Assembly: GCA_963692865.2 (NCBI GenBank)
Contig: OY843592.1
Coordinates: forward strand, 3,877,599 to 3,941,598
Direction: 5' to 3'
Origin: a bacterium
GTDB lineage: Bacteria; UBA8248
DNA: 64,000 nucleotides
Of the stretch, positions 8,604 through 45,834 are shown in pieces. The position numbers and the translations under genes are program-made. The notes beneath the pieces are model-generated. The model searched no databases. It saw only the letters and a program-made list of their open reading frames with translations, and had not been told where the DNA came from. Position 1 is the stretch's first letter. Each line of letters opens with the position of its first letter.

Positions 8604-9977
8604 CTACCCATCCACGCTCATGCCGAACTGGCCCGCGAGGTGGGTGATGAGCCTGCCGGCGGCGTCATCGCTCATCCAGCCGCGTGAGGTGGCCGTCTCG
8701 AGCGCGGCGCTCACGCGCAGGAGCGCCTGGGACATCTTCTCGGTGTCGCGCACGGAGATATCCGGCAGAACGGGCGAGACGCCCGAGCGCAGCGCTTCTT
8801 CACTCAGCGCGCCCGCGCGGCGGGCTTCCTCCAACTGCTTGTCGGCCATGGCCTGCAGGATATGGCGCACGGTGCGCTGGCGGCGCGTCATCTTCTTGAG
8901 CGTGGGCTGATCCATCGACTCGGCCGAGGCGCGGTTCACGTCCTCTCCCTGGGCGAACCAGTGGGAGGGAACGCCCACGCCGCCGAGCAGCAGGCCGCGC
9001 ATCATCTTGGCGATCCCCTGCGCGCCGGACTCGCCGCCTTTCAAGTCGGGCGAGACGGCTTGCCACTCCTCTTTCTCGTTGTGAACGCGCACGCTGGAGG
9101 GCTTGGGCGCGACGCCGTTCTCGGCGAGCCACTCGGCTATCTTCTCGGGGCCCGCGCCCTTGAGCGTTACGTCGTAGATGAAGCTGTTCTGCAGGCGCGC
9201 GCGCTCCACGGCGTCGAATATGAAGCGCTCGTAGGTGTCTATCCAGTCGATGGCGGCGAGCAGATCGGAAGCCCCGCGCGCGGCGTCGCTCGCCTTGTTT
9301 ATCTGGAACAGGAACGCCTCCCCGTCTGTGAAGCGCGCCCGCTCCTTCTGCGCGGAGGCGCTCAGGTAGCCGCGCGGGTCGCCGCCCAGCGCCGTCCGGA
9401 TGCGCTTGCCCTTTCGCGCCGCCCCGCCCGGACCGTCTGCGCGCAGGACGACCCCTACGGCCAGGGCGCAGTTGTCCGGGTCCATCACCACCTCCTCTAT
9501 CAGGCGCGGGCTGACGTAGCCGAGCCGGACGCGCCCCTCGAAGCGCGAGACGGCGACGGGCAGGAGGAGTTCCCCGAAGATGCCGAGTTCGGAGACCAGC
9601 CGCTCGAAGCGGATGTCCATCTGGTTCACGGGGTCGGCCCAGAACGCCTTCACGGCGCGCAGGGCGCGCTCATCCTCCCCGTGCCAGCTCACCCCCTCGC
9701 CCACGACGTGGTCCGTAACGATCTCGATCAGCCGCTGGCCCATCAGGTTCGTGAGCCAAAGCTCATACGCCAGCGCCTGCATGCGCGCGTGGGTGTAGGG
9801 CGAAACCCCGCCGCGCCCCTCGCCCAGGGGCCGCCATATCCGCTCGTCCGGATCAATCGCCGCGCTCATTCGCCCCGAGCGCCGCGCGGCCGCCTTCACT
9901 CTCCCGGCATCTCCCTTGTTCCCGGGTCCCGACTTCCGCCCGGGAGCCTTCACCCTCTTTACACTCTCCATCCTCAT
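8604..9977 (-). CDS. phage portal protein (putative)
   Basis: 457 aa directly after terminase (ATGA overlap); portal-like segments QRLIEIVTDHVVGEG, ELGIFGE, GVGVPSHWF..GEDVNRASA. Confidence 0.75.
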   Translation of the reverse strand: MRMESVKRVKAPGRKSGPGNKGDAGRVKAAARRSGRMSAAIDPDERIWRPLGEGRGGVSPYTHARMQALAYELWLTNLMGQRLIEIVTDHVVGEGVSWHGEDERALRAVKAFWADPVNQMDIRFERLVSELGIFGELLLPVAVSRFEGRVRLGYVSPRLIEEVVMDPDNCALAVGVVLRADGPGGAARKGKRIRTALGGDPRGYLSASAQKERARFTDGEAFLFQINKASDAARGASDLLAAIDWIDTYERFIFDAVERARLQNSFIYDVTLKGAGPEKIAEWLAENGVAPKPSSVRVHNEKEEWQAVSPDLKGGESGAQGIAKMMRGLLLGGVGVPSHWFAQGEDVNRASAESMDQPTLKKMTRRQRTVRHILQAMADKQLEEARRAGALSEEALRSGVSPVLPDISVRDTEKMSQALLRVSAALETATSRGWMSDDAAGRLITHLAGQFGMSVDG

Positions 9978-10621
9978 CTCCTCTCGATCATCCGCTGGTG
10001 ATAAGTCCGCGGCGTCACCGTGCCCCCGGCGAAGGGGGCCAGCACGCCCTCGCTCCGCGCCAGGGACTCGGCCAGCCGCGCATAGGCGCAGGCGAAGCCG
10101 AAGTGGTTCTCGTTCCGCTCATACGCCAGCGCCGTCTCCCCGGAGGAGCGGACGCGCGGCTTTTTTCTCAAATTCATCAGGTGACGCTCCACCTCGTTCA
10201 GGAGCGCCTCCTCCCCGGTGTCCTTTGGACTCGGCAGCAGGACACGCCCGGCGCCCTCGTGGAACTCCTCCACCAGGTGATCGAGCAAATCCTCGCGGTT
10301 CATGCGCACGTGGCGGCGCTCGACCCCCAGAAACGAGACATCCTTGATCTGCATCTCGCCCTCGGTGTGCCGCCAGATGAAGCCGCCGTCCGGATTCAAG
10401 TCGTACACCGCGCGCGCCTCCCGGGTGTGGGGTCCGCCGTCTATGACGAACGCCTCCACGCCCAGGCCCGAGAACACGGCGCGGCACCGCGCGATGAGCC
10501 GCTCGACGGGCAGGGATTCGAAATATATCCACCGGGCGGGCCGGCCCTCCCCGTGTTCGCGCACTGCAAGCGCGCAGGCGTCGCCCGTGTCGATTCCGCA
10601 GAAACGATGCGCCGCGCTCAC
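9974..10621 (-). CDS. terminase large subunit, separately encoded nuclease (RNase H-like) half
   Basis: GTG 10621 with GGAGG SD overlaps ATPase stop (GTGA); FCGIDTG, FVIDGGP, NHFGFA..YA motifs. Confidence 0.7.
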   Translation of the reverse strand: MSAAHRFCGIDTGDACALAVREHGEGRPARWIYFESLPVERLIARCRAVFSGLGVEAFVIDGGPHTREARAVYDLNPDGGFIWRHTEGEMQIKDVSFLGVERRHVRMNREDLLDHLVEEFHEGAGRVLLPSPKDTGEEALLNEVERHLMNLRKKPRVRSSGETALAYERNENHFGFACAYARLAESLARSEGVLAPFAGGTVTPRTYHQRMIERR

Positions 10622-11676
10622 GCGGGCGCCTCCGCCAGGCGATAGGGCGCGGCGTCGCGCAGCTTCCCGAGCAACTCGCGGGAGATCGGCTGGGCGTCGC
10701 CCGCATCGGGGATGGCGAGCGCCGAGCAGCGAAAGCGCGCCCTCTCGCTCGGGAGGCGGGCGGCGGCCCATTTCGCCTTGATGCGGTCGAGGCGCACCGC
10801 GCCGACCGCGAGTTGGGAGAGGCGGTAGCTCCTGTGCCGCCGATTCGCCCGCGCGGCCTCCCACCGCCCCGCGCCTCTCTTGAGCGCGCCGCCACAGTCC
10901 GGGCAAGCGAGGCCGCCCCCGCGCAGGATGCCTGGCCAGTTCTCCTCCAGGACGCTCCCGGCGCGGCACGCCGGGCACCTCACGCGCCAGCGCCTCCGGT
11001 CTCCCGCCTCGTACATGGCGTGAATGCCCGCGCCCGGGGTTCTGCCGACGGCCAGGTTGAGCGTCAGGGCGAGCGGCGAGGCGTCGATGCGGTCGTTCGA
11101 CCACTTGAGGTTCTCCGGCGGCAGGTCGTCCACCTCGTCGCGAATCAGCACGTCGAGCGGAATCGATATGGCGTTGCCGATGTCCCTGAGACCCAGGATG
11201 TAGAGAAAACGCGAACCCCCGCTTCCGGGGAATTCCTTCAAGCCCTTGGGCGACGCGCCCTTGTATTCCCCATCGCGCATGAGCGAGGCGATGCGCCCGC
11301 CCCTGAGCGCGGGGCGCACGCGCGTCTGGTCGAAGCGGTCGGCGAAATCCTGATCGGGCAGAAAATAGCCCACGTTCAGGCGGTGGACGATGACGCAGTA
11401 AAGCGCAAAACCGATGGCGAACGTCGTCATGCCCACCTGCGCGCCCTTGAGGACGCTGACGGTCCGATCGGGCGCGCGATCCTTCAGCACCCCGTCGAGC
11501 GCGGCGACAATCTCCAAAAGCGCCTCTCTGCCCTCGAAGGTGAACGCGCCGGTGTCGGTCGACATCCCGCTCGTCAGAAACCGGGCCAGCCCGCGCGCCT
11601 CGCCCGAAAAGCGCGGGGCTCCGCCGGTCGTAAGGGCCATGCCGGGGGCCCGAAGGATTTTTCGGGACTTGCGCAA
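10618..11676 (-). CDS. terminase large subunit, GpA-type ATPase half
   Basis: VLKGAQVGMTT deviant Walker A, LIRDEVD Walker B, CPAC/CPDC zinc finger; TTG start with GGAGGAG SD. Confidence 0.85.
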   Translation of the reverse strand: MRKSRKILRAPGMALTTGGAPRFSGEARGLARFLTSGMSTDTGAFTFEGREALLEIVAALDGVLKDRAPDRTVSVLKGAQVGMTTFAIGFALYCVIVHRLNVGYFLPDQDFADRFDQTRVRPALRGGRIASLMRDGEYKGASPKGLKEFPGSGGSRFLYILGLRDIGNAISIPLDVLIRDEVDDLPPENLKWSNDRIDASPLALTLNLAVGRTPGAGIHAMYEAGDRRRWRVRCPACRAGSVLEENWPGILRGGGLACPDCGGALKRGAGRWEAARANRRHRSYRLSQLAVGAVRLDRIKAKWAAARLPSERARFRCSALAIPDAGDAQPISRELLGKLRDAAPYRLAEAPA

Positions 11677-11726
11677 TGCCGGAACTCCTCCAGTCCAAGG
11701 ATGCCGCGCGCATCCTCACGGGGAGG

Positions 11727-11781
11727 AATATAGGGGATGGGGGCCGTGAGCCATGACGCGCAAATGCGGGGAAATGCGCGG
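11727..11781 (-). promoter_or_regulatory. late-module promoter P1 (tandem box + 29 bp + TATATT)
   Basis: Minus strand CCGCGCATTTCCCCGCATTT-N29-TATATT upstream of terminase; same layout at 32929 and 35199. Confidence 0.75.
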
Positions 11782-11876: not shown

Positions 11877-11958
11877 GTAGGGGCCGCATATCATGCGGCC
11901 CGTTGCGGAGGCGAAAATCAGGGTCGCATGATATGTTGGACATATATGTCTGACCTAC
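11877..11958. repeat. GTAG...CTAC REP-like palindromic pair
   Basis: GTAGGGGCCGCATATCATGCGGCCC and GGACATATATGTC palindromes; inverted copies near 14008-14093 and 17475-17561. Confidence 0.75.
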
Positions 11959-12604
11959 AGAATCATCACGTCGCCGACCGGGCAGCGGAAGAACCACTCC
12001 CCGGTCGGTGAAATACGACGAATCACGAAATCAGGATTTTTTCACGACCCCGACCGGCAGACTGATGAGCGCATCCTTGCGCTCAGGCGCGCATCCGGGG
12101 TCTTTGAACCCGAAGCGCCCGGCGCGCTCTCGCCGCGCGGCGTTGATCGCGCCTCCGACTTCCTGTAAATCCGTCTTTGAAACAATGCCGAATGAAGGCA
12201 TGGTGTTCGCAAAGCTCCTCTGGAAACCGGGCGCACGCTACACACCCGGCGCTTCTGGTGGTATAGTAGGCGGCAGCTCATCCAACGCCCAGGATTGTTC
12301 TGGAGACGATTGGGGGGTTTCCCCCGCGAGGAATCCCTATTTTCCTTGACTGAACGGCTGGTTCCGACGCCTTCCGGGGCGCGAAACCATCTCAAGGAGA
12401 TTGGTGTATGCGTCGAATCACGACGAAAATCAAGTCCGAAGACGTCGAGAGAGCACGGGCCGGACGCGGTGGTGACGAGGAGATTCTCATCCACGCCACC
12501 CGGTGCGGCATCCAAACCGGCGGGCGGGCGAAGCCGCCGTCTAAAACCTGAACCAAAACCTTTTTTTCGATTCATTACCTGACGCATTTAGGGAGGTTGA
12601 AAAA

Positions 12605-13888
12605 ATGAAACGCTTTCTTTTGTTCCTTTGGGCCGCGGCGCTCGCCCTGGCCCCGGGGACCGCATTCGCGGCCGATAAGCTCGATACCGGGAACACCGCC
12701 TGGATACTGACGTCGACCGCCCTCGTCCTGTTCATGACGCTCCCGGGCCTCTCGCTCTTCTACGGCGGCCTCGTGCGCGCGAAGAACGTGCTCTCGGTGC
12801 TGATGCAGTGCTTCGCCATCGCCTGCGCGGTGTCGGTCGTCTGGCTCGTCGTCGGCTACAGCTTGGTGTTCGAGGCGGGCAACGCCTTCATCGGCGGGCT
12901 GGGCAAGGCGTTCTTCGCGGGCGTGGGCGTGGAATCGCTCTCGGGCAACATTCCCGAGACGGTCTTCGCCATGTTCCAGCTCACCTTCGCCATCATCACG
13001 CCCGCGCTGATCGTGGGCAGCTTCGCCGAGCGGATGCGCTTCTCGGCCCTGTTCATCTTCTCCATCGCGTGGGTGATCCTCGTCTACGCGCCGGTGGCCC
13101 ACTGGGTGTGGGGCGGCGGGTGGCTCGGCGCGATGGGCGCGCTCGATTTCGCGGGCGGCACCGTGGTGCACATCAACTCCGGCATAGCGGCCCTGGTGGC
13201 CGCCATCCTCATCGGCCCGAGGCACGGCTTTCCCACGACGGCCATGCTGCCCCATAACCTGCCCATGGCGGTGACGGGCGCGGGCATCCTGTGGGTCGGC
13301 TGGTTCGGCTTCAACGCGGGCAGCGCGCTGGCGGCAGACGGCGCGGCGGGCATGGCCATGCTCGTCACCCACATCTCCTCGGCGGCCGGCGCGCTCGCGT
13401 GGATGTTCGCCGAGTGGATCAAGCACGGCAAGGCGAGCGTGCTCGGCATCGTGACGGGCATGGTGGCGGGCCTGGTCGGCATCACGCCGGCTTCGGGCTT
13501 CGTGGGGCCGGTGGGCGCGCTGCTGCTCGGCGCGATAGCCGGCGTCGGCTGCTACGCCGCCACCAACTACATGAAGCAGGTGCTCAAGATAGACGACTCG
13601 CTCGACGTGTTCACCGTGCACGGCGTGGGCGGCATCATCGGCGCGATACTAACCGGCGTTTTCGTCGCCAAGGGGTTCGGCGGCGTCGGCTTCGCCGAGG
13701 GCGTCGGCATGGGCAAGCAGTTGTGGATCCAGTTCGTGAGCGTGGTCGCCACGCTCGTCTACTCGGGCGTCGTATCCTTCATCCTGTTCAAAATCGTGGA
13801 CGCCATCGTGGGCCTCAGGGCCGACGCCAACGAGGAATCCGGCGGCCTCGACCTCATGATGCACAACGAATCGGCCTACGAACGCTAG
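12605..13888 (+). CDS. amtB: ammonium transporter
   Basis: DFAGGTVVHINSG, WFGFNAGS, DDSLDVFTVHGVGG; signal peptide; GGGAGG SD. Confidence 0.97.
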   Translation: MKRFLLFLWAAALALAPGTAFAADKLDTGNTAWILTSTALVLFMTLPGLSLFYGGLVRAKNVLSVLMQCFAIACAVSVVWLVVGYSLVFEAGNAFIGGLGKAFFAGVGVESLSGNIPETVFAMFQLTFAIITPALIVGSFAERMRFSALFIFSIAWVILVYAPVAHWVWGGGWLGAMGALDFAGGTVVHINSGIAALVAAILIGPRHGFPTTAMLPHNLPMAVTGAGILWVGWFGFNAGSALAADGAAGMAMLVTHISSAAGALAWMFAEWIKHGKASVLGIVTGMVAGLVGITPASGFVGPVGALLLGAIAGVGCYAATNYMKQVLKIDDSLDVFTVHGVGGIIGAILTGVFVAKGFGGVGFAEGVGMGKQLWIQFVSVVATLVYSGVVSFILFKIVDAIVGLRADANEESGGLDLMMHNESAYER

Positions 13889-13898
13889 GCCGTACGCG

Positions 13899-13929
13899 AA
13901 AAGGCCCCGGGGCCGAGTCCCCGGGGCCG
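13899..13929. terminator. GC hairpin after amtB, between convergent transcription units
   Basis: AAAA-GGCCCCGGGG-ccgagt-CCCCGGGGCC; U-tract on minus strand. Confidence 0.55.
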
Positions 13930-13961
13930 CGCGTTCGCGTGAAAGGCGGCCTCTCCAATTC

Positions 13962-14152
13962 GGGGTTGTTGAAAAACTATCCCTCTCGCATCAACCACGT
14001 TTTACCCGTATGTCGGACATATATGTCCGACATATCATGCGACCCGGCCTTTTCGCCCTTCCGGTGGCGGGCCGCATGATATGCGGCCCCTACAAAAACC
14101 GCTCCCCCCCGGTCGCGTAAAACACTATTCATCAAGGCTTTTTCAACAACCC
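13962..14152. mobile_element. MITE-like element with GGGTTGTTGAAAAA terminal inverted repeats and REP cargo
   Basis: TIRs at both ends; interior nearly identical to 17427-17561. Confidence 0.75.
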
Positions 14153-15166: not shown

Positions 15167-15194
15167 TCCTCTCCCCGGCAGACACGTCTCTTAT

Positions 15195-15588
15195 GGGGTT
15201 GTTGCAAAAGCCCCCTTCGCCTCATCCTGAGTAGCGGCGAAACCGCGTATCGAAGGATGTCCTCTCGCCCCGGGGCAAGCGTTCGATTCCCCGCGCCCTT
15301 CGATACGCCGCCTCCGGCGGCTACTCAGGGTGAGGAAAGAGGCGTTGGCGGTTTGCGAGGGCCACAGACGAAGGTTATTCAACAACCCCCTATCGAGCAA
15401 GTTCGCCGGAATGACGAACAAAACCAAATTCGTCATCGACCCCGACAAAAGAGCGCCAACTACCGTAGGGACAGGCCTCTGTGCCTGTCCTGACGAAAGA
15501 CAACCATGGAGGGCTCGGACAGGCGTAAAGGCCTGTCCGCTACAAACCTTCTACTTGCAAGGCCCTTGCCGGGTTTTTCAACAACCCC
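15195..15588. mobile_element. composite MITE/REP repeat cluster
   Basis: GGGGTTGTTGCAAAA at 15195; TTCAACAACCCC ending 15389 and 15588; internal CATCCTGAGTAGC...GCTACTCAGG and GTAGGGACAGGC...CTAC palindromes. Confidence 0.7.
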
Positions 15589-19267: not shown

Positions 19268-19270
19268 CCT

Positions 19271-30530: not shown

Positions 30531-30652
30531 GGGCGCGTGAACTCCTTTTTTATTCGTCAGTCTGTGGTGACAGCTAAATAGCCTACATGGTTTCGCAGGC
30601 TTTTGCACTACGCGCTATTTTAACAACTCACTCACCTGCTATCTCCCCCCCA

Positions 30653-30862
30653 TCACTTGGTCCGCTCCTCGAGCTTGCGCGTCGCCTCCTCGACGATCTC
30701 GCACACCCTGTCCATCAGGTCGGGGTGCGCGCGGAACGACTCGCGCACCTCCTTGACGATCGCCATCTCGGCGGCGGCGAAGACGTCCTCGTACTCCAGC
30801 TTGAGCTTCTCGGCCGATATGCGGCTGCGCTCCAGCCCGTTCACCATCTGCGCGAGTTTCTC
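30653..30862 (-). pseudogene. duplicated 3' fragment of the DUF3486/gp27-like gene
   Basis: 30661-30862 nearly identical to 31810-32011; no 5' part. Confidence 0.85.
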
Positions 30863-30938
30863 CGGCTTGTAGAGGAGTTTGAGTTAAAGAGATTTCTCTA
30901 GAAAATGCGGACTTCTTAGGATTGGAAACGGTCGAGGC

Positions 30939-31801: not shown

Positions 31802-32374
31802 TTACTCAATCCGCTCCTCGAGCTTGCGCGTCGCCTCCTCGACGATTTCGCACACCCTGTCCATCAGGTCGGGATGCGCGCGGAACGACTCGCGCACCTC
31901 CTTGACGATCGCCATCTTGGCGGCGGCGAAGACGTCCTCGTACTCCAGCTTGAGCTTCTCGGCCGATATGCGGCTGCGCTCCAGCCCGTTCACCATCTGC
32001 GCGAGTTTCTCGGGCGTGAGGTTTTCAAAGGATTCCTTCCCCATCCGCGAGACGGCCTCGACCGCCTGGGTCATCAGCATCCGCCTGGCGGCCGCCGCCA
32101 CCTTCTCGCCGGGGTCCCTGCCCTCGCCGTCATAGGCCATGACTTCCTCGATCAGCTCGTCCACCATGGCTTCCACCCGCCTGGTCTTGCGGATGCCCTC
32201 GAGCAGGCGATTGTTGCGCAAGCCCACCGAGCGTAGTCCTATCTTCTCGCCCGTGGCCTCCTCGAAGGCCTCGGCCACCTCCCTGTAGGTCTTCCCCTCG
32301 GCGAGCATCGGGTCGACGACTTTCTCGGCGCCGTATTCCTCGATTTTCGACCTGCGCCCCCGCCTCCTCTCCAT
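31802..32374 (-). CDS. Mu gp27-like (DUF3486) protein, putative small terminase
   Basis: N-terminal RGRRSKIE followed by HTH-like TYREVA; helical C-terminus; coupled to gp26-like gene. Confidence 0.7.
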   Translation of the reverse strand: MERRRGRRSKIEEYGAEKVVDPMLAEGKTYREVAEAFEEATGEKIGLRSVGLRNNRLLEGIRKTRRVEAMVDELIEEVMAYDGEGRDPGEKVAAAARRMLMTQAVEAVSRMGKESFENLTPEKLAQMVNGLERSRISAEKLKLEYEDVFAAAKMAIVKEVRESFRAHPDLMDRVCEIVEEATRKLEERIE

Positions 32375-32706
32375 TATAGATCCCCCACGAGGACGTCGGG
32401 CGAAGCGGAAACCGCTCCTTCGAGCAGGCCGCGCCCCTTGCGGGTGAGGTGCGCCTCGTAGTCCGTCAGCAGACGCCCGAACCCGCCCGGCGTGCGCTTT
32501 TCCAGAAGGCCGCGCGCGGCGAGGTCGTCCACGAAGGCTTCGAGCGTCTCGCGCCCCAGGGGCGCGCCGTCCTCATGGTGGCCCGCTTCGCGCAGCGCGC
32601 TCCAAAGGAGAAGGCTGCCCACGCTCGACTCCGCACGCAAGGCATCCTGGTAATACAGCGTCTTCAATATGTCGCCGCGCAGGACGCGGGCCGTCAGTTC
32701 GTTCAC
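32374..32706 (-). CDS. Mu gp26-like winged-helix protein
   Basis: LRGDILKTL...DLAARGLL...AHLTRKGRGLLEG pattern; GAGGAGG SD; TAATG coupling. Confidence 0.65.
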   Translation of the reverse strand: MNELTARVLRGDILKTLYYQDALRAESSVGSLLLWSALREAGHHEDGAPLGRETLEAFVDDLAARGLLEKRTPGGFGRLLTDYEAHLTRKGRGLLEGAVSASPDVLVGDL

Positions 32707-32928: not shown

Positions 32929-32983
32929 AACATACAACGCGGCGCGGGTTCGGGCGGCACGGGAAATGCGGGGAAATGCGCGG
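32929..32983 (-). promoter_or_regulatory. late-module promoter P2 (tandem box + 29 bp + TATGTT)
   Basis: Box 32964-32983 identical (20/20) to 11762-11781; same spacing to the -10. Confidence 0.75.
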
Positions 32984-33939: not shown

Positions 33940-34365
33940 TCACCGCGCCTTTCCCTTGAGTTTCTCGACGGTGCGGAGCGCGCCCAGACCCAGCATCCCC
34001 AGCGTGAGTTCCATCAACCCGTCCGCCGAGACGGGATAGGGCGCGAGCTCGCCGCTCATCAGCACCTGCCGCGTCCAGAGCCATGCCCCGAGCGCGAACT
34101 GCGGGATGAAATAGAAGGCGAGCGAGACGCCGCAGGTCCACAGGATGAACGGCCTGCCGCCTGCGACGAAGGCGCTCCGGTGGGCGGCCTCTATCCTGTT
34201 GATCTCGTTCTGGGCCTCAAAGGGCCGCATCATCAGCTTCTGTTTTATCGCCTCCGCCGCGCGCCGCTCGTCCGGCGTCTCGACGAACTTGTCGATGACG
34301 TTGGCGACCCCCTCCGCCGCCGTGAGGACGCCGCCTCCGATGAGCTTTTCCAAAAAGGCCATCAC
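33940..34365 (-). CDS. 3TM holin (GTA_holin_3TM-like)
   Basis: EAAHRSAFVAGGRPFILW and LGMLGLGALRTVEK motifs; coupled to lysozyme (ATGA-type overlap). Confidence 0.85.
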   Translation of the reverse strand: MMAFLEKLIGGGVLTAAEGVANVIDKFVETPDERRAAEAIKQKLMMRPFEAQNEINRIEAAHRSAFVAGGRPFILWTCGVSLAFYFIPQFALGAWLWTRQVLMSGELAPYPVSADGLMELTLGMLGLGALRTVEKLKGKAR

Positions 34366-34775
34366 GCGCTCCTCATGCGCTCGGCGACCCGGCCCGCCCG
34401 CGCGGGGAGTTCCCTCGCGTAAATTGAATCGAGCGCCTCATCGGCGGCGAGCGCGTAATCGCCCCCGGCGAGCGCGGCCCACATCTTCCGAAACCCCAGA
34501 AGGCGCGGCACGCCCATGTTGTAGGCCATGTTCATGACCGCGCGCCTGGCGCCCGGCTTGAGACCCCTGCAGGTCCCGCCGACGGGGGAGCGCTCCAGTT
34601 CTTCGGCCATCAGGCCGAGGCGGTGGCGAAGCAGCAGTTCGGCTTCGGCCTCGGATATGCCGTCTTCGAGCAGCGTCCCGTAGCCGATGGTCTTCTTGCC
34701 CTTGTTATCCAGATACACTACCGGCACGAAACCCTCCTCGCGCTTGATCTCCTCTACGAGTTCGTCGGTGAGCAC
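34362..34775 (-). CDS. phage lysozyme/endolysin (T4-like, GH24)
   Basis: EEG..VYLD..G.KTIGYG catalytic E/D/T triad; NMAYNMGV..L.GFRKM. Confidence 0.88.
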   Translation of the reverse strand: MLTDELVEEIKREEGFVPVVYLDNKGKKTIGYGTLLEDGISEAEAELLLRHRLGLMAEELERSPVGGTCRGLKPGARRAVMNMAYNMGVPRLLGFRKMWAALAGGDYALAADEALDSIYARELPARAGRVAERMRSA

Positions 34776-34993
34776 CCCGCGCCCTCCTCTTCAAGCAGAT
34801 CCCCGATATCTTCCGCCTCTCTCAACAGACGCAGGAGCGCCGCAGCGCCCCTGCGCGCCCCCGCGCGGCGCGCGTAGGTCCGGCTCGACGCCGGCGCCCG
34901 TCCGTTCCTCGCCCGGACGCGGAAGCGATGCCGCCCGGATCCGTCCGTGAAGGTCTCGACCGGGCGATGTTTCGACCTCTTCACGGCCCGCAT
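34754..34993 (-). CDS. YegP/DUF1508-like small basic protein
   Basis: ETFTDGSGRHRFRVRARNGR..ASSRTY..RAGARRG pattern; overlaps neighbours at both ends. Confidence 0.55.
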   Translation of the reverse strand: MRAVKRSKHRPVETFTDGSGRHRFRVRARNGRAPASSRTYARRAGARRGAAALLRLLREAEDIGDLLEEEGAGCSPTNS

Positions 34994-35130
34994 ACGAGCA
35001 CCCCCAGGAAAAAGCCCGAAAGCGCGAGCGCCGCGCCCGCGGCAATTAGACGCAAGGCGGTGTGCTTCCTGTTCGCCCAGCGCCACAAGGCGGCGTCCGT
35101 TCTTCGTTCGAATTCGTTTTTTTCGCTCAT
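34981..35130 (-). CDS. 49-aa single-TM protein, first gene of the lysis cassette
   Basis: GAGGAG SD; MSEKNEFERRTDAALWRWANRKHTALRLIAAGAALALSGFFLGVLVCGP; below ORF-track cut-off. Confidence 0.6.
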   Translation of the reverse strand: MSEKNEFERRTDAALWRWANRKHTALRLIAAGAALALSGFFLGVLVCGP

Positions 35131-35198: not shown

Positions 35199-35253
35199 AT
35201 TCTACGTCTTGCCGGCGCGCGTCCGATGACGGAAAATGCGGGCAACTGCGCGG
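35199..35253 (-). promoter_or_regulatory. late-module promoter P3 (tandem box + 29 bp + TAGAAT)
   Basis: Box 35234-35253 matches 18/20; a third repeat AGATGCG follows in phase; same spacing. Confidence 0.7.
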
Positions 35254-35402
35254 AGATGCGCCCCCGAGTTCCCGGTGCGCGCCGAAAACCTCGAAAACGG
35301 CGTTTCAACCGGCGGGCAAGGGGTGATAAAATACGCATCGCCCAAGGTCGTTTCGGTATAATGCGCGCTACAGCGCACGCCGCCACAAACAGGAGACGAA
35401 CA

Positions 35403-38830: not shown

Positions 38831-39347
38831 CAATTCCTTTATTGCCCAGATTGACAACCGAGTGTCCCCAATCGGGCAATTCGACGTGCTTGTTGTCCAA
38901 GAGGAAGCATGGTCCTTGGACGCGAACGAGTCGGCCGGATGTGAGTACCGCGTTCGCGTGCAGGAGAAGTGGCACAAGCACAATCTCACGAACACGCCGA
39001 AGAGCCAACTAAAGGAGCGAGAGGTACTAGAAACGGCGGTGGATGATGCCGGGCCGTCAGGTGATACCAGAGACGAAGCTGGCGGTGGAAATCGAGCCGG
39101 CGGTGCTCTGGACACACCTATCACACCGGACGCCTTAGGTGCCCGCGAGATCCTGGTTTTCTTCACTGAGGATCAAACCAGCTTGTACGCGGCCTGGAAC
39201 ACTCTGGCGAACCTCACGGACGTTACGGGCGAAGTCTCGGCCAACGCCAGAGCGAAACCCCCGAAGTACACCAACAAAGTCAATTTGGAGAGCAGCGTGC
39301 TTGGGACGTTGCAGGAACTCGGGCTACTTGAGGACGATGAGGCATGA
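38823..39347 (+). pseudogene. probable internally deleted DUF499-type ATPase remnant
   Basis: C-terminus LYAAWNTLANL...VLGTLQELGLLE resembles the tail of DUF499 ATPases (from memory); no P-loop. Confidence 0.4.
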
Positions 39348-41452
39348 AGATCAAAAGCCTAAATGTTCAGAATTTTCGTGCGATCAATCGGGTCGAACTG
39401 TCCGACCTCCCGGATATGATCGTCATCGCCGGACCGAACGGCTGCGGAAAATCTTGCATTCTGGATGCCATTCGCCTTTTCAAGTCAGTCTATGGTGGAT
39501 ATCAGCCAAACGAGTGGCAGCAGTGGTTCGGCGAGTTTCAGATCGATTTCCAAAGAAACCCTCATCAGATGGCGTCTCTTTTGAGAGATAAATCTCGCCC
39601 CTCGGAGATCGACGCAACGATTAGGTTAGCTGACGCCGAGGCTCGTTTTGTTGAAACTGAGTTGCAACAAATGCTGGAGGATCACGTTTGGAAGACGCTC
39701 TTCCCGGGTCTCCAACAAGGCAATATTCGTGTCCGACCTGGATTGGCAGCAGAGTTGCGAGCACATAAGCCAACGGTCGACGAGAGAGTTGGACAACTGC
39801 TACCACAGGTGCGCCATCAACTAGCGAATCGAGAGTTGCGAGGAAGACTTGTAATTCAGCCTAACGGAACGGCGGAGACCACTGCAAATGTCCTCCTGGA
39901 GCTCGTCTTTTCTTCTTTTCGACCGAAACATATAGGTTTGATCGACTATCACGGTTCGCATAGGAACTACGGCAGAGAACAACTCGGAGGCATTAACCTG
40001 AATCTCGATCAGGAAGAGGAGCGGTTTAGAACAGCAACTCTGTACAACTACGCGAACAAGTACGCAAACATCAAGAGCGAGATGGCGGCTGAATTCGTTA
40101 GACAAGCGCTCATGGAAAAGGCGTTTGGAGGGGCGGCCACCAAGGGAAGGGAGACACCCCTTGCCGATACGCTCCAAGAACTATTCAACATTTTCTTCCC
40201 AGACAAGAAGTTTCTTGGTCCCCAACCAACGGAAGACGGGAGTCTCAGTTTTCCAGTTGAGGTTGAGGGCGGCGTGACCCATGACATTAATGACCTATCG
40301 TCCGGTGAGAAAGAGGTACTATTCGGTTATCTGAGGTTGAGAAACTCGGCGCCAAAGTATTCCGTCATTCTTTTGGATGAGCCAGAGTTGCATCTCAATC
40401 CCGCGTTGGTGCGTGGCCTCCCTCAGTTCTATTTGAAGCGACTTGGCTTCGACTTAGAAAACCAAATTTGGCTGGTAACTCACTCGGATGCTTTTCTCAG
40501 AGAGGCGATGGGGCACAACGGTTTGCGGGTCTTTCACATGCAATACGCCGCCACGTCCAGCGTTACCGAGAATCAGGTTCACGAAATCCAAACCGGAGAA
40601 GAGACCGAAGCGCTCATACTGGAAATGGTTGGAGATCTAGCGGCGTATCGGCCGGGCGCTAAAGTTGTCTTTTTCGAAGGAGAGAACTCGGAATTTGATC
40701 TGAATATGGTGTCGCGTCTATTTCCATCCTTCGAAAAAGAGGTCAACCTAGTTTCCGGTGGCAATCGGACAAAAGTTGAAGCACTGCATAAAACGCTGGA
40801 GCTTAGCGTCCAAGCCGGCGAAATCCCCGTCAAGATATATTCTGTGGTCGACAAGGACTCCACTTCAGGGGTCGAAGCCACTGAGGAGTTTCATCGCCAC
40901 TTCTCGTGGGATGTCTATCATATCGAGAATTACCTCCTAAACGCTCCATTTATCAAATCGGCTTTGGACAGCCTAAACGTCCACCAAGATGGAGTTGCTA
41001 CCGACACTGCGATTGAGAATCATCTTGCGAGGATTGCGGATCAACAAGTTGACCAGCTTGTGGGCCACAAAATCAGGGCGGACGTTGGCGCGGCTCTAAT
41101 TCATGAACTTGATCTGGGATTCAACCCAATATCCAGTGAAATTGGCAAGGACCTTCATGATGCCGTGGACAGGTCGCTCACGCGAGTGAGACAACGAGCG
41201 GCTAATGAGTTCCGTCTTGAAGACATACAGGCTTGCGTAAACGAGGAACGACAGGTACTTCAAGCGTCTTTGGAGAATGGCGACTGGAAGAAACATTTTA
41301 AGGGTCGAGAAATATTGCGAGCGTTTGCCGGAGAATTCCTGCCGGGAATGAGGTACGAATACTTTCGAGACTTGCTCATCAGCCAAATGGTCAATGACGG
41401 ATATCAGCCTGAGGGAATGAAGGCCGTACTCGACCAAATCTTGAGCGATTAA
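39344..41452 (+). CDS. ABC/AAA ATPase with C-terminal TOPRIM-like domain (OLD/DUF4435-like putative defence nuclease)
   Basis: GPNGCGKS, LSSGE, LLDEPELHL, VTHS; FFEG..D, VDKD, IENYL. Confidence 0.8.
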   Translation: MKIKSLNVQNFRAINRVELSDLPDMIVIAGPNGCGKSCILDAIRLFKSVYGGYQPNEWQQWFGEFQIDFQRNPHQMASLLRDKSRPSEIDATIRLADAEARFVETELQQMLEDHVWKTLFPGLQQGNIRVRPGLAAELRAHKPTVDERVGQLLPQVRHQLANRELRGRLVIQPNGTAETTANVLLELVFSSFRPKHIGLIDYHGSHRNYGREQLGGINLNLDQEEERFRTATLYNYANKYANIKSEMAAEFVRQALMEKAFGGAATKGRETPLADTLQELFNIFFPDKKFLGPQPTEDGSLSFPVEVEGGVTHDINDLSSGEKEVLFGYLRLRNSAPKYSVILLDEPELHLNPALVRGLPQFYLKRLGFDLENQIWLVTHSDAFLREAMGHNGLRVFHMQYAATSSVTENQVHEIQTGEETEALILEMVGDLAAYRPGAKVVFFEGENSEFDLNMVSRLFPSFEKEVNLVSGGNRTKVEALHKTLELSVQAGEIPVKIYSVVDKDSTSGVEATEEFHRHFSWDVYHIENYLLNAPFIKSALDSLNVHQDGVATDTAIENHLARIADQQVDQLVGHKIRADVGAALIHELDLGFNPISSEIGKDLHDAVDRSLTRVRQRAANEFRLEDIQACVNEERQVLQASLENGDWKKHFKGREILRAFAGEFLPGMRYEYFRDLLISQMVNDGYQPEGMKAVLDQILSD

Positions 41453-41455
41453 CTC

Positions 41456-42862
41456 ATGTTCATGACCTCTGAAGAGATCGCGGCATTATCGACCGCTGGC
41501 GAATCAGAGACACTCGAATTCAAGGCCACAACGGGAACGCGCCGTGAGGCAGCAGCGACAGTATGCGCCATGCTTAACCAGCAGGGCGGACATGTACTGT
41601 TCGGCGTCACTCAGGAGGGCGTCATTGGTCAGCATGTGAGCGAGCGAACGATTGAGGAAGTGAGCGCTGAAATCCAGCGGATCGATCCACCTGCGTTTCC
41701 GGAAATCGAGAGGGTTCGGGTATCTGATGACCGTGAGGTGATCGCTGTGCATGTGAGCCGCGGTTCTTCACCTCCGTACCTATATCGAGGAATTTCCTAT
41801 CGACGTGTTGGCAATTCGACTCGGGCCATGTCGGCAGATGAGTACAATCGGATACTCTTCGAGCGCATGCACAGTGAGCGACGTTGGGAGAACCAACCTG
41901 CCGCTGGCTGGACCGTCAAAGATCTCGATGTGGCGGAAATACGCAACACGGTTGCAGAAGCAGTGCGGAGTGGCCGTCTGAACGAACCCGGAAGCCGGGA
42001 ACCGGAGGACTTGCTGCGCGGTCTGGGGCTGATCCGAGGCGACGTCTTGTTTCGAGCGGCGGCGGTGCTATTCGGGCACACAGAGCGTATCGAGTGTGAG
42101 ATGCCGCAGTGCCTGCTTCGTGTGGCCCGATTCCGGGGCCTCGACCGATCCGAATTCCTGGACAACCGGCAATTCAATGGCAACGCCTTCACGCTACTCG
42201 CGAGCGCTGAGCGCTTTCTGCGCGACACCTTGCCCATCGCCAGCCAGTTCGAATCAGGGCGTATGGCGCGCATCGACAAACCATTTTATCCGCCCCTAGC
42301 CACACGGGAGGCGCTGGCAAACGCCCTTTGCCATCGTGACTATGCGCTGGGCGGAGGCTCCATCGGGCTTGCGGTGTACGACGATCGCTTGGAAGTGACG
42401 TCGACCGGCTCGCTTCACTTCGGACTGACCCCGGACGATTTGTTCGGGCCACACGAGTCAAGGCCTTGGAACCCACTCATCGCTCGCACGTTCTACCGGC
42501 GGGGCATCATCGAGGAGTGGGGTCGCGGGACGCTCAAGATGGCGGACTTGGCGATCTCCGCCGGGTTGCCCAGGCCGGAGATTGAGGAATGCGGCGACTG
42601 CGTGACGGTGCGCTTCCGGCGCGCTGAGTTCGTGCCGTCCCGGCGCAGAGGGAACGACCTGTTCGAGCGGCAGGAGGCGATTCTGTCGCTGCTGGATCGT
42701 TCGGAAGAGGGCCTACCATTGCGCGACATTGTTTCCCGCATGGCGTCTGAAACCAGTGTACGACAGGTCAAACGGGCCTTATTGATGTTGCGTGACCGAA
42801 GGTTGGCGGAATCGGTGGGCCGTGGGCCTGCCGCCCGGTGGAGGCGAATTCGATCTGAATAA
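41456..42862 (+). CDS. Schlafen/AlbA_2 + HATPase_c_4 + HTH protein
   Basis: ESETLEFK, CAMLNQQGG, REALANALCHRDY, IEEWGRG. Confidence 0.85.
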   Translation: MFMTSEEIAALSTAGESETLEFKATTGTRREAAATVCAMLNQQGGHVLFGVTQEGVIGQHVSERTIEEVSAEIQRIDPPAFPEIERVRVSDDREVIAVHVSRGSSPPYLYRGISYRRVGNSTRAMSADEYNRILFERMHSERRWENQPAAGWTVKDLDVAEIRNTVAEAVRSGRLNEPGSREPEDLLRGLGLIRGDVLFRAAAVLFGHTERIECEMPQCLLRVARFRGLDRSEFLDNRQFNGNAFTLLASAERFLRDTLPIASQFESGRMARIDKPFYPPLATREALANALCHRDYALGGGSIGLAVYDDRLEVTSTGSLHFGLTPDDLFGPHESRPWNPLIARTFYRRGIIEEWGRGTLKMADLAISAGLPRPEIEECGDCVTVRFRRAEFVPSRRRGNDLFERQEAILSLLDRSEEGLPLRDIVSRMASETSVRQVKRALLMLRDRRLAESVGRGPAARWRRIRSE

Positions 42863-42886
42863 ACCCCCACGAGTCTCGGAGGTCTC

Positions 42887-42922
42887 ACTGGGGTCCCACT
42901 GGGGTCTTATTGGGGTCTTATT
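42887..42922. repeat. 11-bp tandem repeat AYTGGGGTCYY x3
   Basis: ACTGGGGTCCC ACTGGGGTCTT ATTGGGGTCTT. Confidence 0.7.
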
Positions 42923-43230
42923 CCTCTCGACACTATCATAGCGGTTCGCGAACGAGGCACGGAGCCCCGAGACGGACGACACAGATAACATCCAACAATG
43001 TGTGGATGTTTTACTAAAAGGCTGACTTGGCCCAGATCCACTAACTCTACACATGAAGGAGCCGGCTGAGCCGCTGAATCTGTCGGCTCGCTACAACGGT
43101 GAGTCGGGACACAACTTCGCGGCGCCGAGCAGGCTCTGCTGCAGCATAAGAGCGGTGGCGAAGCCTCCATTAAGCAGGAGTTTTCGCCCATGCAGCAGGT
43201 ACCCGACTTGCGCCTGACGACATCAAAACG

Positions 43231-43362
43231 GGATATGAGATCGGCTTCACCCGCTACTTCTACAAGCCGTAGCCGATGCGGACGCTGGAGGAGATTCGGG
43301 CGGACATACTGGCGCTGGAGGAGGAGACGGAGGGGCTGCCGGGGGAGATTGTCGGCGGGTAG
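43231..43362 (+). pseudogene. C-terminal remnant of type I R-M HsdM
   Basis: GYEIGFTRYFYKP*PMRTLEEIRADILALEEETEGL; internal TAG, no 5' part. Confidence 0.7.
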
Positions 43363-43556
43363 CGGTGGGAACCCCGTTATTCAAGGCAGCCTTCAACAAG
43401 AACGGGCTGCGCTCCCATATTAAACGCAGCTTATAACAAAACCCTCAAAAGCGGTTATATTATAGATAACCTTGCATAAGGTGGTTAAACATCTTTATAT
43501 TAAAGTTTGCGTACAATATGAGTTTGTTTTGCTTCTATATTTAACGAAAGAGTAAT

Positions 43557-44738
43557 ATGACCGAGCGCTTAAACGAACATACCGCCCGCGCAGGGACGTA
43601 CATTCGACAGTTGGGCGGGTACCGGGCCTTCATTCCAGCGCCCTTGCCGCCTGATCCGCCTGTCGAAATCACTGGAGAGTTGCAGGCGCTGCTCTCCCAG
43701 GCCGACCGCGCTCTGGGCCGCCTCGACGGGTCCATACAGACGCTGCCCCACCCGGACTTGTTCGTTCTCATGTACGTCCGCAAGGAGGCCGTGCTGTCGA
43801 GCCAGATTGAGGGAACGCAGAGTTCGCTGCAGGATCTGCTGGCGGCAGAAGCGAGGATATTCGCACCGAATCGAGCGAGCGACGTGGGCGAAGTGTTGAA
43901 CTATGTCGCGGCCATGAACCACGGCCTGAAAAGACTCCCTGAAATACCGGTTTCGATCCGCCTGATCCGCGAAATTCACGCCGAACTTCTCCAGGGCAGG
44001 CGGGGTTCTCATCTCATGCCCGGGGAGTTGCGGAGCAGCCAGAACTGGATCGGACCCGCAGGCTGCACGCTTCATGAGGCCCTCTTCGTTCCGCCTCCAC
44101 CCCAGCAGGTCGCGGAGGAGATGTCGCAACTGGAGCGATTCATCCACGCCGATACGGAGTTGCCTCTATTGGTGAAAATCGGACTCGCCCATGCCCAGTT
44201 CGAGACGATTCACCCTTTCCTGGACGGCAATGGCCGCGTGGGGCGGCTGCTCATCACCTTTTTGCTCTGCGAGCAGGGTGTGTTGCAGAAACCGGTTCTC
44301 TATTTGTCCTGGTTCTTCAAACAGCACCGGCAGCAGTATTACGATGAACTGCAATCGGTGCGCGACGCCGGGACGTGGGAGCGGTGGCTCGCTTTTTTCC
44401 TGCGCGGGGTCGTGGAGGTGAGCGGACAGGCGACCGACACGGCGAGGCGGATAATGTCCCTTCGCGAAGAACATCGCCGCATGATCACCGAGAGCTTCGG
44501 CCGCGCCGCCGCCAACGGCCACCGGGTGCTGGAGCATATCTATGAATACCCGATCGTATCGGTTAGCGACGTGCAGGAACTGATCGGGACGACCTACACG
44601 GCGGCGAACAATCTCGTTGCGCGGATGGCCGGTTGCGGCATCCTGCGCGAATTCACCGGTCGGATCCGCAACCGGAGGTTCAGGTATCAGAACTACATCG
44701 ACCTGTTCCACGATAACGAGTCGGAGACTGTCATTTGA
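43557..44738 (+). CDS. Fic family protein (Fic_N + Fic + HTH)
   Basis: SSQIEGT inhibitory motif, HPFLDGNGRVGR. Confidence 0.93.
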   Translation: MTERLNEHTARAGTYIRQLGGYRAFIPAPLPPDPPVEITGELQALLSQADRALGRLDGSIQTLPHPDLFVLMYVRKEAVLSSQIEGTQSSLQDLLAAEARIFAPNRASDVGEVLNYVAAMNHGLKRLPEIPVSIRLIREIHAELLQGRRGSHLMPGELRSSQNWIGPAGCTLHEALFVPPPPQQVAEEMSQLERFIHADTELPLLVKIGLAHAQFETIHPFLDGNGRVGRLLITFLLCEQGVLQKPVLYLSWFFKQHRQQYYDELQSVRDAGTWERWLAFFLRGVVEVSGQATDTARRIMSLREEHRRMITESFGRAAANGHRVLEHIYEYPIVSVSDVQELIGTTYTAANNLVARMAGCGILREFTGRIRNRRFRYQNYIDLFHDNESETVI

Positions 44739-44830
44739 TCGCGTGCTTCAAACCGTATACCAAGTACGCAACGAAGCCGATGCAGCGGGCAACTGCATAC
44801 TGATTGCGTACCTCTTTGATCGGAATCGAC

Positions 44831-45220
44831 CTACTCCCGCATGCCGCCGAATTTCCATTCGAGGTCGCGGGGGAAATCCTCCGTCATCTTCTCGACGTAG
44901 GCGAGCACGTCCTCGCGGCGGAAGCGCGCGCTCTTGAAGGAGGGGTGGTTCTCGGGGCGCCTCGCGCCCGCGCGCGGGGGCGGCCGGCGCAGGTAGACGG
45001 GCCGGAGGCAGGGCGCGTCGCTCGCGCAGTCCTCGGCGATGATGGCGTCGAGCGTGCGGTAGCTCCTGTAGCCGAGCACCCTGGCGAGCATGGGCTTGGT
45101 GAGAAACGCCTCCTCCTCGAGGATGCGGCGCGGGGTTCTCGGGTCGGGCGGGGCGTGTTTCGCGCTCCTCTTGCGCCGCTTGCGCGTGGCCGTCTTATCG
45201 CGGGGCTCTTCGGGCGGCAT
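44831..45220 (-). CDS. small basic Xis/BldC-like (HTH_17) DNA-binding protein
   Basis: FLTKPMLARVLGYRSYRTLDAII ... RFRREDVLAYVE pattern; TGATG coupling. Confidence 0.55.
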   Translation of the reverse strand: MPPEEPRDKTATRKRRKRSAKHAPPDPRTPRRILEEEAFLTKPMLARVLGYRSYRTLDAIIAEDCASDAPCLRPVYLRRPPPRAGARRPENHPSFKSARFRREDVLAYVEKMTEDFPRDLEWKFGGMRE

Positions 45221-45465
45221 CAGCCGAGCGCCTCGATGAGCGGGAGCAGGACCAGGTCGCTGCGACGGGCTTTCTTCATCCTGACGAGGGCGTCGGCGCG
45301 GGCGCGGGCGGACGCGGCGTCCGGGAAGATGAGGCGCACGCTCCTCTCGCGGGAGCGGTCGCGGTAGACGAGCAGCGCGGCCTCCCGGGGGACGCCCAGC
45401 CCCTCGTCCACAAGGTCGGAGAGCGTGCGCTCATGGGTTCCGATGAAGGAGACGGCCTCGTTCAT
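45220..45465 (-). CDS. hypothetical protein
   Basis: 81 aa; GGGGAGG SD; coupled to the downstream HTH gene. Confidence 0.55.
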   Translation of the reverse strand: MNEAVSFIGTHERTLSDLVDEGLGVPREAALLVYRDRSRERSVRLIFPDAASARARADALVRMKKARRSDLVLLPLIEALG

Positions 45466-45805
45466 GACGACGCCCCTCCCCCGCATTCGCATGCGGCCCC
45501 CTCCGCAAGAAGCGGTAAAGGCCCGGATGACCCGCGTGGTCTTGAACGTGCGATGGTCTCGGAAGGGGGCGTCCCGCGGGCGGTTCGAGACGCCGCGTTC
45601 GGTGGGGAAGATGGCGGGGTGTCGCGGGACGGGTCATCCGGGCGAGGCGAATTCCTGAAAATATGTATAAATTTGGATAAATTGACGGGGTTTTTCGGTA
45701 AATTCATGAAATTTCCCTTTTTTCTTCATAAAACCATTTATATCAACCAGATACGCCATGAATCCGCCTGTGCGCGATATTCCGATTCAGACATCAGGCA
45801 GGAAG

Positions 45806-45834
45806 AATATATCTATATATAACTATTATGTCAA
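45806..45834 (-). promoter_or_regulatory. near-consensus sigma70 promoter
   Basis: Minus strand TTGACA-N17-TATATT in an AT-rich island, pointing at 45465-44831. Confidence 0.7.

Follow-up and report, generated by a model that had tools for sequence, protein, structure and literature searches.

Four described systems serve as points of comparison for the DNA analysed here: the gene transfer agent (GTA) RcGTA of the alphaproteobacterium Rhodobacter capsulatus; the Bacillus subtilis defective prophage PBSX, which forms a single contiguous cluster and has a repressor and a sigma-like factor of its own; the Mu-like siphovirus Mae-JY22, a Microcystis phage; and, for the packaging motor, large terminases of the lambda gpA type, in which ATPase and nuclease reside in one polypeptide. 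An extract of one article (PMC12946183) describes GTAs as encoded by dispersed operons and as hard to distinguish from defective prophages, counts few of them outside the Alphaproteobacteria, and treats PBSX as GTA-like. Here we analyse the final 64 kb (positions 3,877,599-3,941,598) of contig C1 from a 4.15-Mb genome in 8 contigs (G000). This whole stretch is called the window, and it carries phage late genes scattered among host genes. An earlier note on the same DNA proposed that these genes form a domesticated packaging-and-lysis regulon, and sequence comparison supports that reading as far as it reaches. With a probability of about 0.62, we consider the genes to be a domesticated, phage-derived particle system of the GTA type, maintained in a family of uncultured, mostly sponge-associated Nitrospinota/'Tectomicrobia' bacteria.

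Many sequencing runs that contain parts of the window carry the label sponge metagenome; no RNA run was among those listed. Our search of literature, which was available in part, found no report of a GTA in Nitrospinota or 'Tectomicrobia'; the match that joined the terms concerned alphaproteobacterial GTAs. For comparison we used a genus panel of 22 other species genomes and a further panel of 14 genomes from other genera of the family. Because most of the latter are fragmented assemblies, single misses among them carry little weight. Individual genomes are denoted by G numbers; G029 and G035 are relatives from other genera, and G041 is a class-level relative.

Phage late genes form modules among host operons

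Profile searches against Pfam (PF) and PHROG (phrog) locate the phage genes of the window, all of them on the minus strand. The module nearest the left end comprises a large terminase (TerL), described below, and a portal protein gene (8604..9977; phrog_10963, E 4e-46) that has no Pfam family match and whose product is 40% identical to the portal of Mae-JY22. The next module joins an open reading frame (ORF) of 110 amino acids (aa) at the gp26 position (32374..32706) to a gene for a small terminase (TerS; 31802..32374) of the Mu gp27-like, DUF3486 type (phrog_426, E 1e-9; PF11985, 25 bits, under the 28-bit cut-off). The lysis module opens with a 49-aa membrane ORF (34981..35130; kept in G020), continues with an endolysin gene of the phage lysozyme type (34362..34775; PF00959, E 4e-10; phrog_7, E 1e-18) and ends with a holin gene (33940..34365; PF11351 GTA_holin_3TM, E 2e-11; phrog_3427, E 1e-23). 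The host genes that separate the window modules are amtB, an ABC operon and genes for an M24 peptidase and two S15/CocE peptidases. The full order is cofDCE, tail tube to capsid, host genes, portal and TerL, amtB with the ABC operon and CocE genes, TerS, lysis, and finally the small ORFs p129 and p90 followed by a LysR gene and gltB.

These matches bear out the picture of minus-strand modules separated by host genes that the earlier note had drawn, and most of its details hold as well. Translational coupling is evident as 4-nt or 1-nt stop/start overlaps at the TerL-C/portal, gp26/TerS and lysozyme/holin junctions, and the GC content is host-like (0.66-0.69 in modules vs 0.63-0.67 in host neighbours). 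The note saw no integrase, Mu transposase or replication gene; likewise, apart from an unrelated IS110 element, we find no integrase, transposase, repressor or replication gene among the ORFs scanned in either of the loci described here. Two descriptions require amendment. The terminase beside the portal is indeed GpA-type (PF05876), but TerL is two overlapping ORFs rather than a single gene. In the pair described as gp26/gp27-like, the gp27-like reading of TerS is kept, but the 110-aa ORF matches no Pfam or PHROG family and resembles gp26 by position only.

The note also held that head and tail genes would have to lie elsewhere, and both were found, behind the promoter motif discussed below. 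Proteins of Mae-JY22 match three more places just left of the window, where a head, neck and tail-tube module occupies C1:3868386-3874314, 3-9 kb from the window and on the same strand as its modules. The gene order is a protease-capsid fusion, a 300-aa protein (p300), an HK97-gp10-like neck protein, a 184-aa protein (p184), the tail tube (PF18906, E 4e-13) and a 130-aa protein (p130). The fusion protein has 693 aa (PF25209, E 1e-46; phrog_4523); against PF10124 the capsid scores 26 bits (cut-off 20), yet no single domain passes alone. On one side cofDCE flanks this module, and the genes between it and the portal encode a diadenylate cyclase, a dehydrogenase and two luciferase-like monooxygenases.

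A second locus, 2.2 Mb away at C1:1633466-1640345, is a tape-measure and distal-tail module that was located through homologues of G029 tail genes. It encodes 368-, 177-, 403- and 231-aa proteins, two small membrane ORFs and a 561-aa tape-measure-like protein with two GEAGPE motifs (phrog_1535, E 1e-5). Immediately after its tail-tube module, G029 has a tape-measure-like gene and then three others, and two of these (391- and 403-aa ORFs) have G000 homologues at C1:1637500-1640345. The 403-aa tail protein has viral clusters as its closest neighbours in the Atlas, one of which includes PF13550 in 20% of its members; a C-terminal LamG domain is present in 4 of 42 homologues. PDB sequence searches with the portal, TerS, capsid, 368-aa protein, 403-aa profile and p129 gave nothing useful, and no PDB chain was matched by sequence to the portal, capsid or tail proteins.

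The arrangement is not peculiar to this assembly. Module and host-gene order is identical in G020, G001, G019 and G007, and DNA matches extend it across the genus. The interleaved layout recurs in the single-contig chromosomes of G001, G007 and G020, so it is not a mis-assembly, one of the conditions under which the earlier note would have withdrawn its proposal. The second locus is likewise syntenic within the genus and distant from the first: on C1 the two lie at 3.87-3.92 Mb and 1.63-1.64 Mb, and in the other complete genus genomes compared the distance ranges from 0.27 Mb (G022) to 2.4 Mb (G011), with 2.0 Mb in G020 and G001. In G029 the capsid adjoins the portal, and in both G029 and G035 the tail genes still adjoin the head genes; thus the tail genes were relocated in or before this genus.

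The modules are retained and lost together under purifying selection

The capsid, the 403-aa tail protein, p129 and the ATPase part of TerL (TerL-N) are each matched in the same 20 of the 22 genus genomes, and the portal is full length and in one piece in 19 of them. Five markers are found in 8-10 of the 14 genomes from other genera; none of the five occurs in three small genomes belonging to one of those genera.

The two species without the system, G009 and G010, retain the host backbone from cofDCE to a glycine-zipper gene (in G010 as far as gltB). The capsid-tube, portal-TerL, TerS-gp26 and lysis modules are absent from this backbone, and no p129 or 403-aa tail gene is present anywhere in either genome. 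G010 preserves remnants, namely the last 26 codons of the portal gene, 25 codons from the start of TerS and a 43-codon piece of the small lysis ORF, and a portal search recovers a 27-aa remnant there and nothing in G009. By host-gene identity, G010 is about as near to G000 as is G020 whereas G009 is distant, and the two losses are therefore probably independent.

Ratios of nonsynonymous to synonymous substitution rates (dN/dS) were computed with our own Nei-Gojobori code for G000 genes against up to five relatives; an earlier run with Biopython agreed wherever Biopython gave values. The 20 system genes have dN/dS of 0.10-0.57, vs 0.07-0.51 for 11 host neighbours. Synonymous distances are also similar (for G020, dS of 0.22-0.57 in system genes vs 0.22-0.45 in host neighbours) and reach 2.2 overall. 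Trees for 11 genomes, built from TerL-N, TerL-C and portal on the one hand and from amtB, a conserved 366-aa neighbour and the dehydrogenase on the other, have three well-supported clades in common, and they differ only within the core clade, where support is weak.

The three comparisons that the earlier note had suggested all favour its view: 19-20 of the 22 genus genomes have intact orthologues, dN/dS is well below 1, as it is for host neighbours, and the phage-gene and host-gene trees share every well-supported clade. Domestication and vertical inheritance are close to certain.

The large terminase is encoded by two overlapping ORFs

The ATPase half of the large terminase, TerL-N (10618..11676), matches PF05876 (GpA_ATPase; E 7e-16, 59 bits against a cut-off of 25.6) and phrog_675 (E 8e-48), covering positions 26-343 of the 576 in the latter profile. 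The nuclease half, TerL-C (9974..10621), is an ORF of its own in a different frame, and its GTG start codon overlaps the TGA of TerL-N. An orthologue of TerL-C in G018 matches phrog_675 at positions 461-549 (E 4e-4), which lie beyond the part covered by TerL-N.

The junction is the same in every genome examined. In 21 sequences from 17 distinct genomes, which constitute the independent evidence on this point, the ATPase ORF terminates in TGA. In 20 of the 21, an RTGA overlap (ATG or GTG over TGA) opens the second ORF immediately 5' of a conserved FCGIDTGD stretch. The remaining row is G029, for which our script gave other start codons and the printed sequence was read by eye as GTGA. Across the family, all matches to phrog_675 stop at positions 337-346, fragmentary rows from G027, G029 and G031 excepted. 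In the class-level relative G041, a homologous terminase gene runs in one frame across the junction and is collinear through the nuclease half. Because the same RTGA overlap is present in all 17 genomes and both halves are constrained, the split does not represent damage. TerL-N is at most 24-28% identical to any deposited phage TerL, TerL-C matches no deposited phage, and among the literature matches listed, none reported a split large terminase.

A shared late promoter motif precedes the modules

In the putative late promoter, CGCATTT occurs two or three times at a spacing of 10 bp, and a TAnnnT box lies exactly 29 nt downstream of the final copy. Upstream of TerL (11727..11779, minus strand) the exact motif GCGCATTTCCCCGCATTT (11779-11762) is followed by the 29-nt spacer and TATATT, and both motif and -10 box are found at the orthologous site in G020, G001, G007 and also G015. 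The gp26 promoter (32929..32981, minus strand) has the exact motif at 32981-32964, the same spacer and TATGTT, with a variant at the matching site in G020. The lysis promoter (35199..35261, minus strand) carries three phased repeats (motif at 35251-35234, 2 mismatches), the 29-nt spacer and TAGAAT, and is kept in G020, G001 and G007. In all, six transcription units of G000 have the motif in front of them in the correct orientation: those of the capsid, TerL, gp26, lysis and the 368-aa gene, plus that of the tape measure, where it is a variant. The earlier note had assigned a copy of one promoter to every module; that is correct for TerL, gp26 and lysis, but the feature at 45834-45806 is a different, sigma-70-like promoter.

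Similar patterns are observed in relatives. The 55-kb region of G020 contains five hits (<=3 mismatches), and the four sites where they fall coincide exactly with the four module starts. The motif is also kept at orthologous sites, the tail locus included, in G001, G007 and G019, and G029 has a variant with CCGAATTT repeats before the capsid gene, the tape-measure-like gene and the following tail gene. Exact copies number 7-29 in 17 of the 19 system-bearing genus genomes examined, and hits with <=1 mismatch number 35 in G020, 33 in G001, 0 in G009 and 2 in G010; a control with the reversed pattern gave 0-2 hits. With <=2 mismatches, all three hits in G015 lie before modules, as do 2 of the 5 in G019, whereas the system-less G009 has none and G010 has 4, one of them at the lost TerL promoter site.

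The step from a shared promoter to a regulon, which the earlier note took, needs amendment: the motif is not private to the system in G000, where it has about 70 copies, but in G015 every hit is at a module and the system-less species have 0 and 4. From these contrasts, only two or three of which are independent, we conclude that this late promoter belongs to the system itself and that, in some genomes, repeats later carried copies of it elsewhere. A reading of the motif as an ordinary repeat unrelated to the phage genes was considered and dropped, given its conservation at module sites and the exclusive location of the G015 hits.

In the repeats in question, a leader of variable length (100-400 nt) joins the late-promoter motif to an AT-rich box built of repeated GATAAAT-like units. 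Of the 70 motif sites in G000, 37 belong to multi-copy families, typically promoter plus short leader plus AT-rich box. About 50 AT-rich boxes are spread over both strands of G000 with a median spacing of about 60 kb, and for 35 of 56 boxes the motif lies 115-430 nt upstream. Such boxes number 52 in G020 and 0-1 in G001, G009, G010 and G029. One dispersed repeat lies in the window at 45,560-45,640; other examples are at C1:2203606 and C1:2209188. Since the repeats are not kept in place between species (one locus was compared), they behave as mobile or fast-evolving elements. Rfam contains no known RNA family matching the window or the loci L036 and L053, the latter of which holds one dispersed repeat.

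Could these repeats instead be cis elements of the system itself, the AT box acting as a pac-like TerS recognition site from which the whole chromosome is packaged at genome-wide positions? Firing of the system would then open and mark dozens of chromosomal sites, and the split terminase would drive packaging from them. Confinement of the motif to modules in G015 and its near absence from two system-less species are in line with this idea, which we nevertheless regard as rather unlikely.

p90 and p129 are candidate regulators

Two small ORFs lie at the upstream end of the locus: p90 (45220..45492, minus strand) and, coupled to it, p129 (44831..45220, minus strand). p129 shows the 20-of-22 pattern of the structural genes, and pseudogene pieces of it occur in G033, a genome without the structural genes. 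It is a candidate regulator without a family or PDB match; from our reading of the alignment, it may contain a helix-turn-helix. p90 is kept in G020, G019, G007 and G029 (dN/dS 0.39-0.42) and has no family match, and neither protein matches the Mor/C families even in a relaxed Pfam search at E up to 1.

Before p90 and p129 is a near-consensus sigma-70-like promoter (45806..45834, minus strand; TTGACA-17-TATATT) that is kept in the same four relatives. Directly after its -10 box, an inverted repeat (45770-45806) is orthologous in G020, G019 and G007 and is a near-perfect palindrome in G019. As a candidate operator for a repressor, this repeat could link induction to a signal from the host.

A model for the system and points against it

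The best account of these data begins with a siphovirus ancestor whose head module resembled that of Mae-JY22 and which would have lost everything needed for autonomy. Its late genes, a nearly complete set for head, tail, packaging and lysis, would survive as about six transcription units, set amid host operons from cofE to gltB and at the second locus. In the proposed order of events, the sigma-70-type promoter with its operator-like inverted repeat would drive p90 and p129; one of these, or another system-linked factor, would then activate the late promoters through the phased CGCATTT copies at about -59 to -42. The cell would make the protease-capsid fusion, portal, neck, tail-tube, tape-measure and distal tail proteins together with a terminase composed of TerS and of TerL as separate ATPase and nuclease polypeptides. 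Heads would be filled with cellular DNA, and holin and lysozyme would release the particles. Because the two loci are 2.2 Mb apart, no particle would carry the whole system, and the packaged DNA would thus be host DNA.

This candidate shows all the comparative-genomic hallmarks of domestication. It also has several features expected of a GTA: capsid, portal, terminase, tail and lysis genes of phage derivation; no replication, integration or transposition genes of its own among the ORFs scanned, several small ORFs being unassigned; dispersed loci; and vertical inheritance under purifying selection. Production of DNA-filled particles is likely, and gene transfer by those particles is plausible. 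If the particles do move DNA, they would provide a route of gene exchange within sponge microbiomes, and the split terminase would be a natural experiment on the construction of packaging motors.

Several observations weigh against this account. The tape-measure assignment is based on weak matches (E 1e-5), and no family could be assigned to the 368-, 177- and 231-aa proteins, p300, p184, p130, the gp26-position protein, p90 or p129. The promoter motif has 16 exact copies and 70-71 sites with <=2 mismatches in the G000 genome, about 65 of these beyond the modules. The search of G000 for the Mu transposase core (PF02914) was empty, as were those of the control genomes. The split of TerL could be a sign that the motor is crippled. 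In G015 the portal is found as three pieces with a single TGA. The TerL-N part of G029 runs over two frames of its own (G029:C1:3141689-3142620), and no holin or lysozyme was detected in that genome with G000 queries. TerL of G029 lies 10 kb from the portal; that copy of the system may be decaying or further rearranged.

Alternative explanations

The alternative that survives best is a killer particle akin to PBSX, a particle weapon whose selected role would be killing or adhesion and for which any packaged DNA would be incidental. A set of tail, tape-measure and lysis genes fits this explanation equally well, some homologues of the 403-aa tail protein carry LamG domains, which are lectin-like, and PBSX itself is treated as GTA-like in the extract cited above (PMC12946183). 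We consider it unlikely for two reasons. TerS (dN/dS 0.15-0.53), TerL-N (0.22-0.30), TerL-C (0.18-0.57) and the portal (0.10-0.25) are constrained as strongly as the tail genes, which would be unexpected if packaging were irrelevant, and among the genes of the loci scanned, none was recognisable as bacteriocin-like or as an immunity gene.

Quite unlikely is a scenario in which a subset of the conserved genes has been exapted for some host function that needs no complete particle, the rest being linked passengers. Linkage cannot account for the joint retention in 20 of 22 genomes and joint loss in the other two, because the modules sit at two loci 2.2 Mb apart. The many components without assigned function, as well as the split in TerL, would be compatible with such a subset, but every structural gene class has dN/dS below 0.6. 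Within the window, selection extends to the holin (0.12-0.21), the lysozyme (0.21-0.27) and the 110-aa ORF at the gp26 position (0.12-0.28), which is kept in G020, G019, G007 and G029.

We regard it as very improbable that the modules are a decaying prophage, broken by insertions and rearrangements and devoid of present function. The region does contain an IS110 element and other insertions, part of TerS is duplicated, TerL occupies two frames, and two species have lost all modules. However, 19-20 of 22 species, and other genera as well, have intact frames, and at dS up to 2.2, values that exclude near-identical strains, unconstrained genes would be riddled with stops instead of having dN/dS of 0.10-0.57. 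Moreover, the TerL split is the same RTGA overlap in 17 of 17 genomes examined, and the promoter motif and its -10 box are conserved. Least credible of all is an active, inducible prophage with cargo genes, or a contiguous prophage scattered by assembly, because the only feature that speaks for it, the order lysis, TerS, TerL, portal, head and tail of a phage late region, is countered by the identical interleaved layout in the single-contig G001, G007 and G020 assemblies, tail genes 2.2 Mb away, no replication, transposition, integration or repressor genes found, dS equal to that of host genes and congruent trees.

Insertions and other features of the region

In addition to the domesticated system, the G000 region has several strain-specific features: an IS110 copy, a low-GC stretch at 22-26 kb, a defence-like island at 38-45 kb and a duplicated TerS end. 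The duplicate (30617..30869, minus strand; repeat family D4) is 90% identical to the 3' end of the TerS gene and is a scar left by an insertion that brought a 154-aa ORF (31194-31658). G020 is without the segment between the TerS gene and the duplicated end. Between the gp26-TerS and lysis modules, at 33475-33825, are two long inverted repeats of 44 nt (91%) and 30 nt (100%). The ORF at 33532-33903 is probably not a gene, because these repeats translate into a repeat-type 'protein'.

The IS110-family element (17795-19440) interrupts the ABC operon; relatives do not have it at this position, and G000 has five more copies with 97-100% identity. An 82-nt repeat with the perfect 26-bp palindrome TATGTCGGACATATATGTCCGACATA is present in three copies around amtB and the ABC operon (11914-11958, 13972-14053 and 17438-17519), one of them inverted, with a second, 27-nt palindromic repeat alongside; it could be an operator or a repeat element. 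The low-GC stretch (22100-26200, GC 0.53) contains an 8-bp tandem repeat (25687-25731) and two ORFs, one of 311 aa and one of 623 aa that is lipoprotein-like with a TbpB-type C-terminal barrel (under the family cut-off). Neither ORF has a match in the regions searched in G020, G001, G019, G007 and G029.

Right of the TerL, TerS and lysis modules are genes for a DNA methylase, an AAA_21/DUF4435 ATPase, a Schlafen/AlbA_2 protein and a Fic protein. The stretch at 38300-44800 (GC 0.55), with the OLD-like AAA_21/DUF4435 ATPase, the Schlafen/AlbA_2-HATPase_c_4 protein and the Fic/DOC protein, resembles a defence or toxin island that was inserted between p129 and the lysis genes. G020 has no such island at this place, and its Fic gene lies elsewhere. 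No tRNA adjoins the phage-derived system.

A 163-aa ORF 3' of the portal gene (7782..8273, minus strand; phrog_21691, E 4e-18) is a variable accessory gene, present in G001 and in the loci of three other relatives (L016, L021 and L033) and not in G020, G019 or G007. Its weak match to PIN was the sole result when ten unassigned proteins were subjected to the relaxed Pfam search (E up to 1). With regard to the assembly, parts of the small contigs C4, C5 and C8 duplicate regions of C1 with few differences (for example C5:1196 vs C1:371615 and C4:30984 vs C1:1208718). These are probably strain variants in the bin, which fits a contamination estimate of 6.7%.

Comparison with known systems

Like RcGTA, the G000 system has siphovirus-derived head, tail and packaging genes and occupies more than one locus, its lysis genes being separate from those for head and tail, and both exhibit vertical inheritance, purifying selection and no autonomy. 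The two share one gene family, that of the holin, PF11351, which is named after the GTA holin. Homology to the RcGTA family in head, tail and packaging genes was not observed, the other genes matching different families or none. In contrast to RcGTA, the G000 system has an independent origin, a GpA-type TerL (PF05876) in two ORFs, a PF25209 protease-capsid fusion, a portal without a Pfam family, host operons between its modules and one dedicated promoter motif for all units.

The head genes point instead to Mae-JY22 (PP438414). The capsid fusions align over 695 residues with 33% identity, two neck proteins are homologous, and the order lysis, gp27-type TerS, TerL, portal, head and tail is the same. 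However, the phage genome is contiguous (41 kb) with an annotated Gam gene, its own TerL is a single ORF of another type, and the TerL and TerS of G000 match nothing there. Similarly, 11 IMG/VR contigs carry portals that are 32-38% identical, 8 of them with a capsid gene nearby, and these portal relatives are accompanied by a different terminase. By these matches, the terminase differs in origin from that of Mae-JY22-like phages. Nothing in G000 matched Gam of Mae-JY22 or its coding sequences at transposase positions (12171-15358), which are annotated 'hypothetical' and which we read as MuA/MuB; more generally, transposase A, ATPase B, Gam and Mor/C, which mark a Mu-like phage, were not found among the searches run. 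In gene content, then, the system does not count as a Mu-like phage: some of its head and neck genes descend from one, but transposition genes were not found.

PBSX is likewise conserved and non-autonomous and is known to package host DNA, an activity proposed here, whereas its particle is myovirus-like and its cluster has no interleaved host genes. The ATPase half of the G000 terminase is, like lambda gpA-type terminases, a match to PF05876 and phrog_675, and alone belongs to PF05876; the difference is that lambda gpA-type enzymes combine both activities in one chain and G000 encodes them as two translationally coupled ORFs. Set beside all of these systems, the unusual traits of this candidate GTA are the host operons between its modules, the permanently split large terminase and a dedicated promoter that in some species has spread on repeats.

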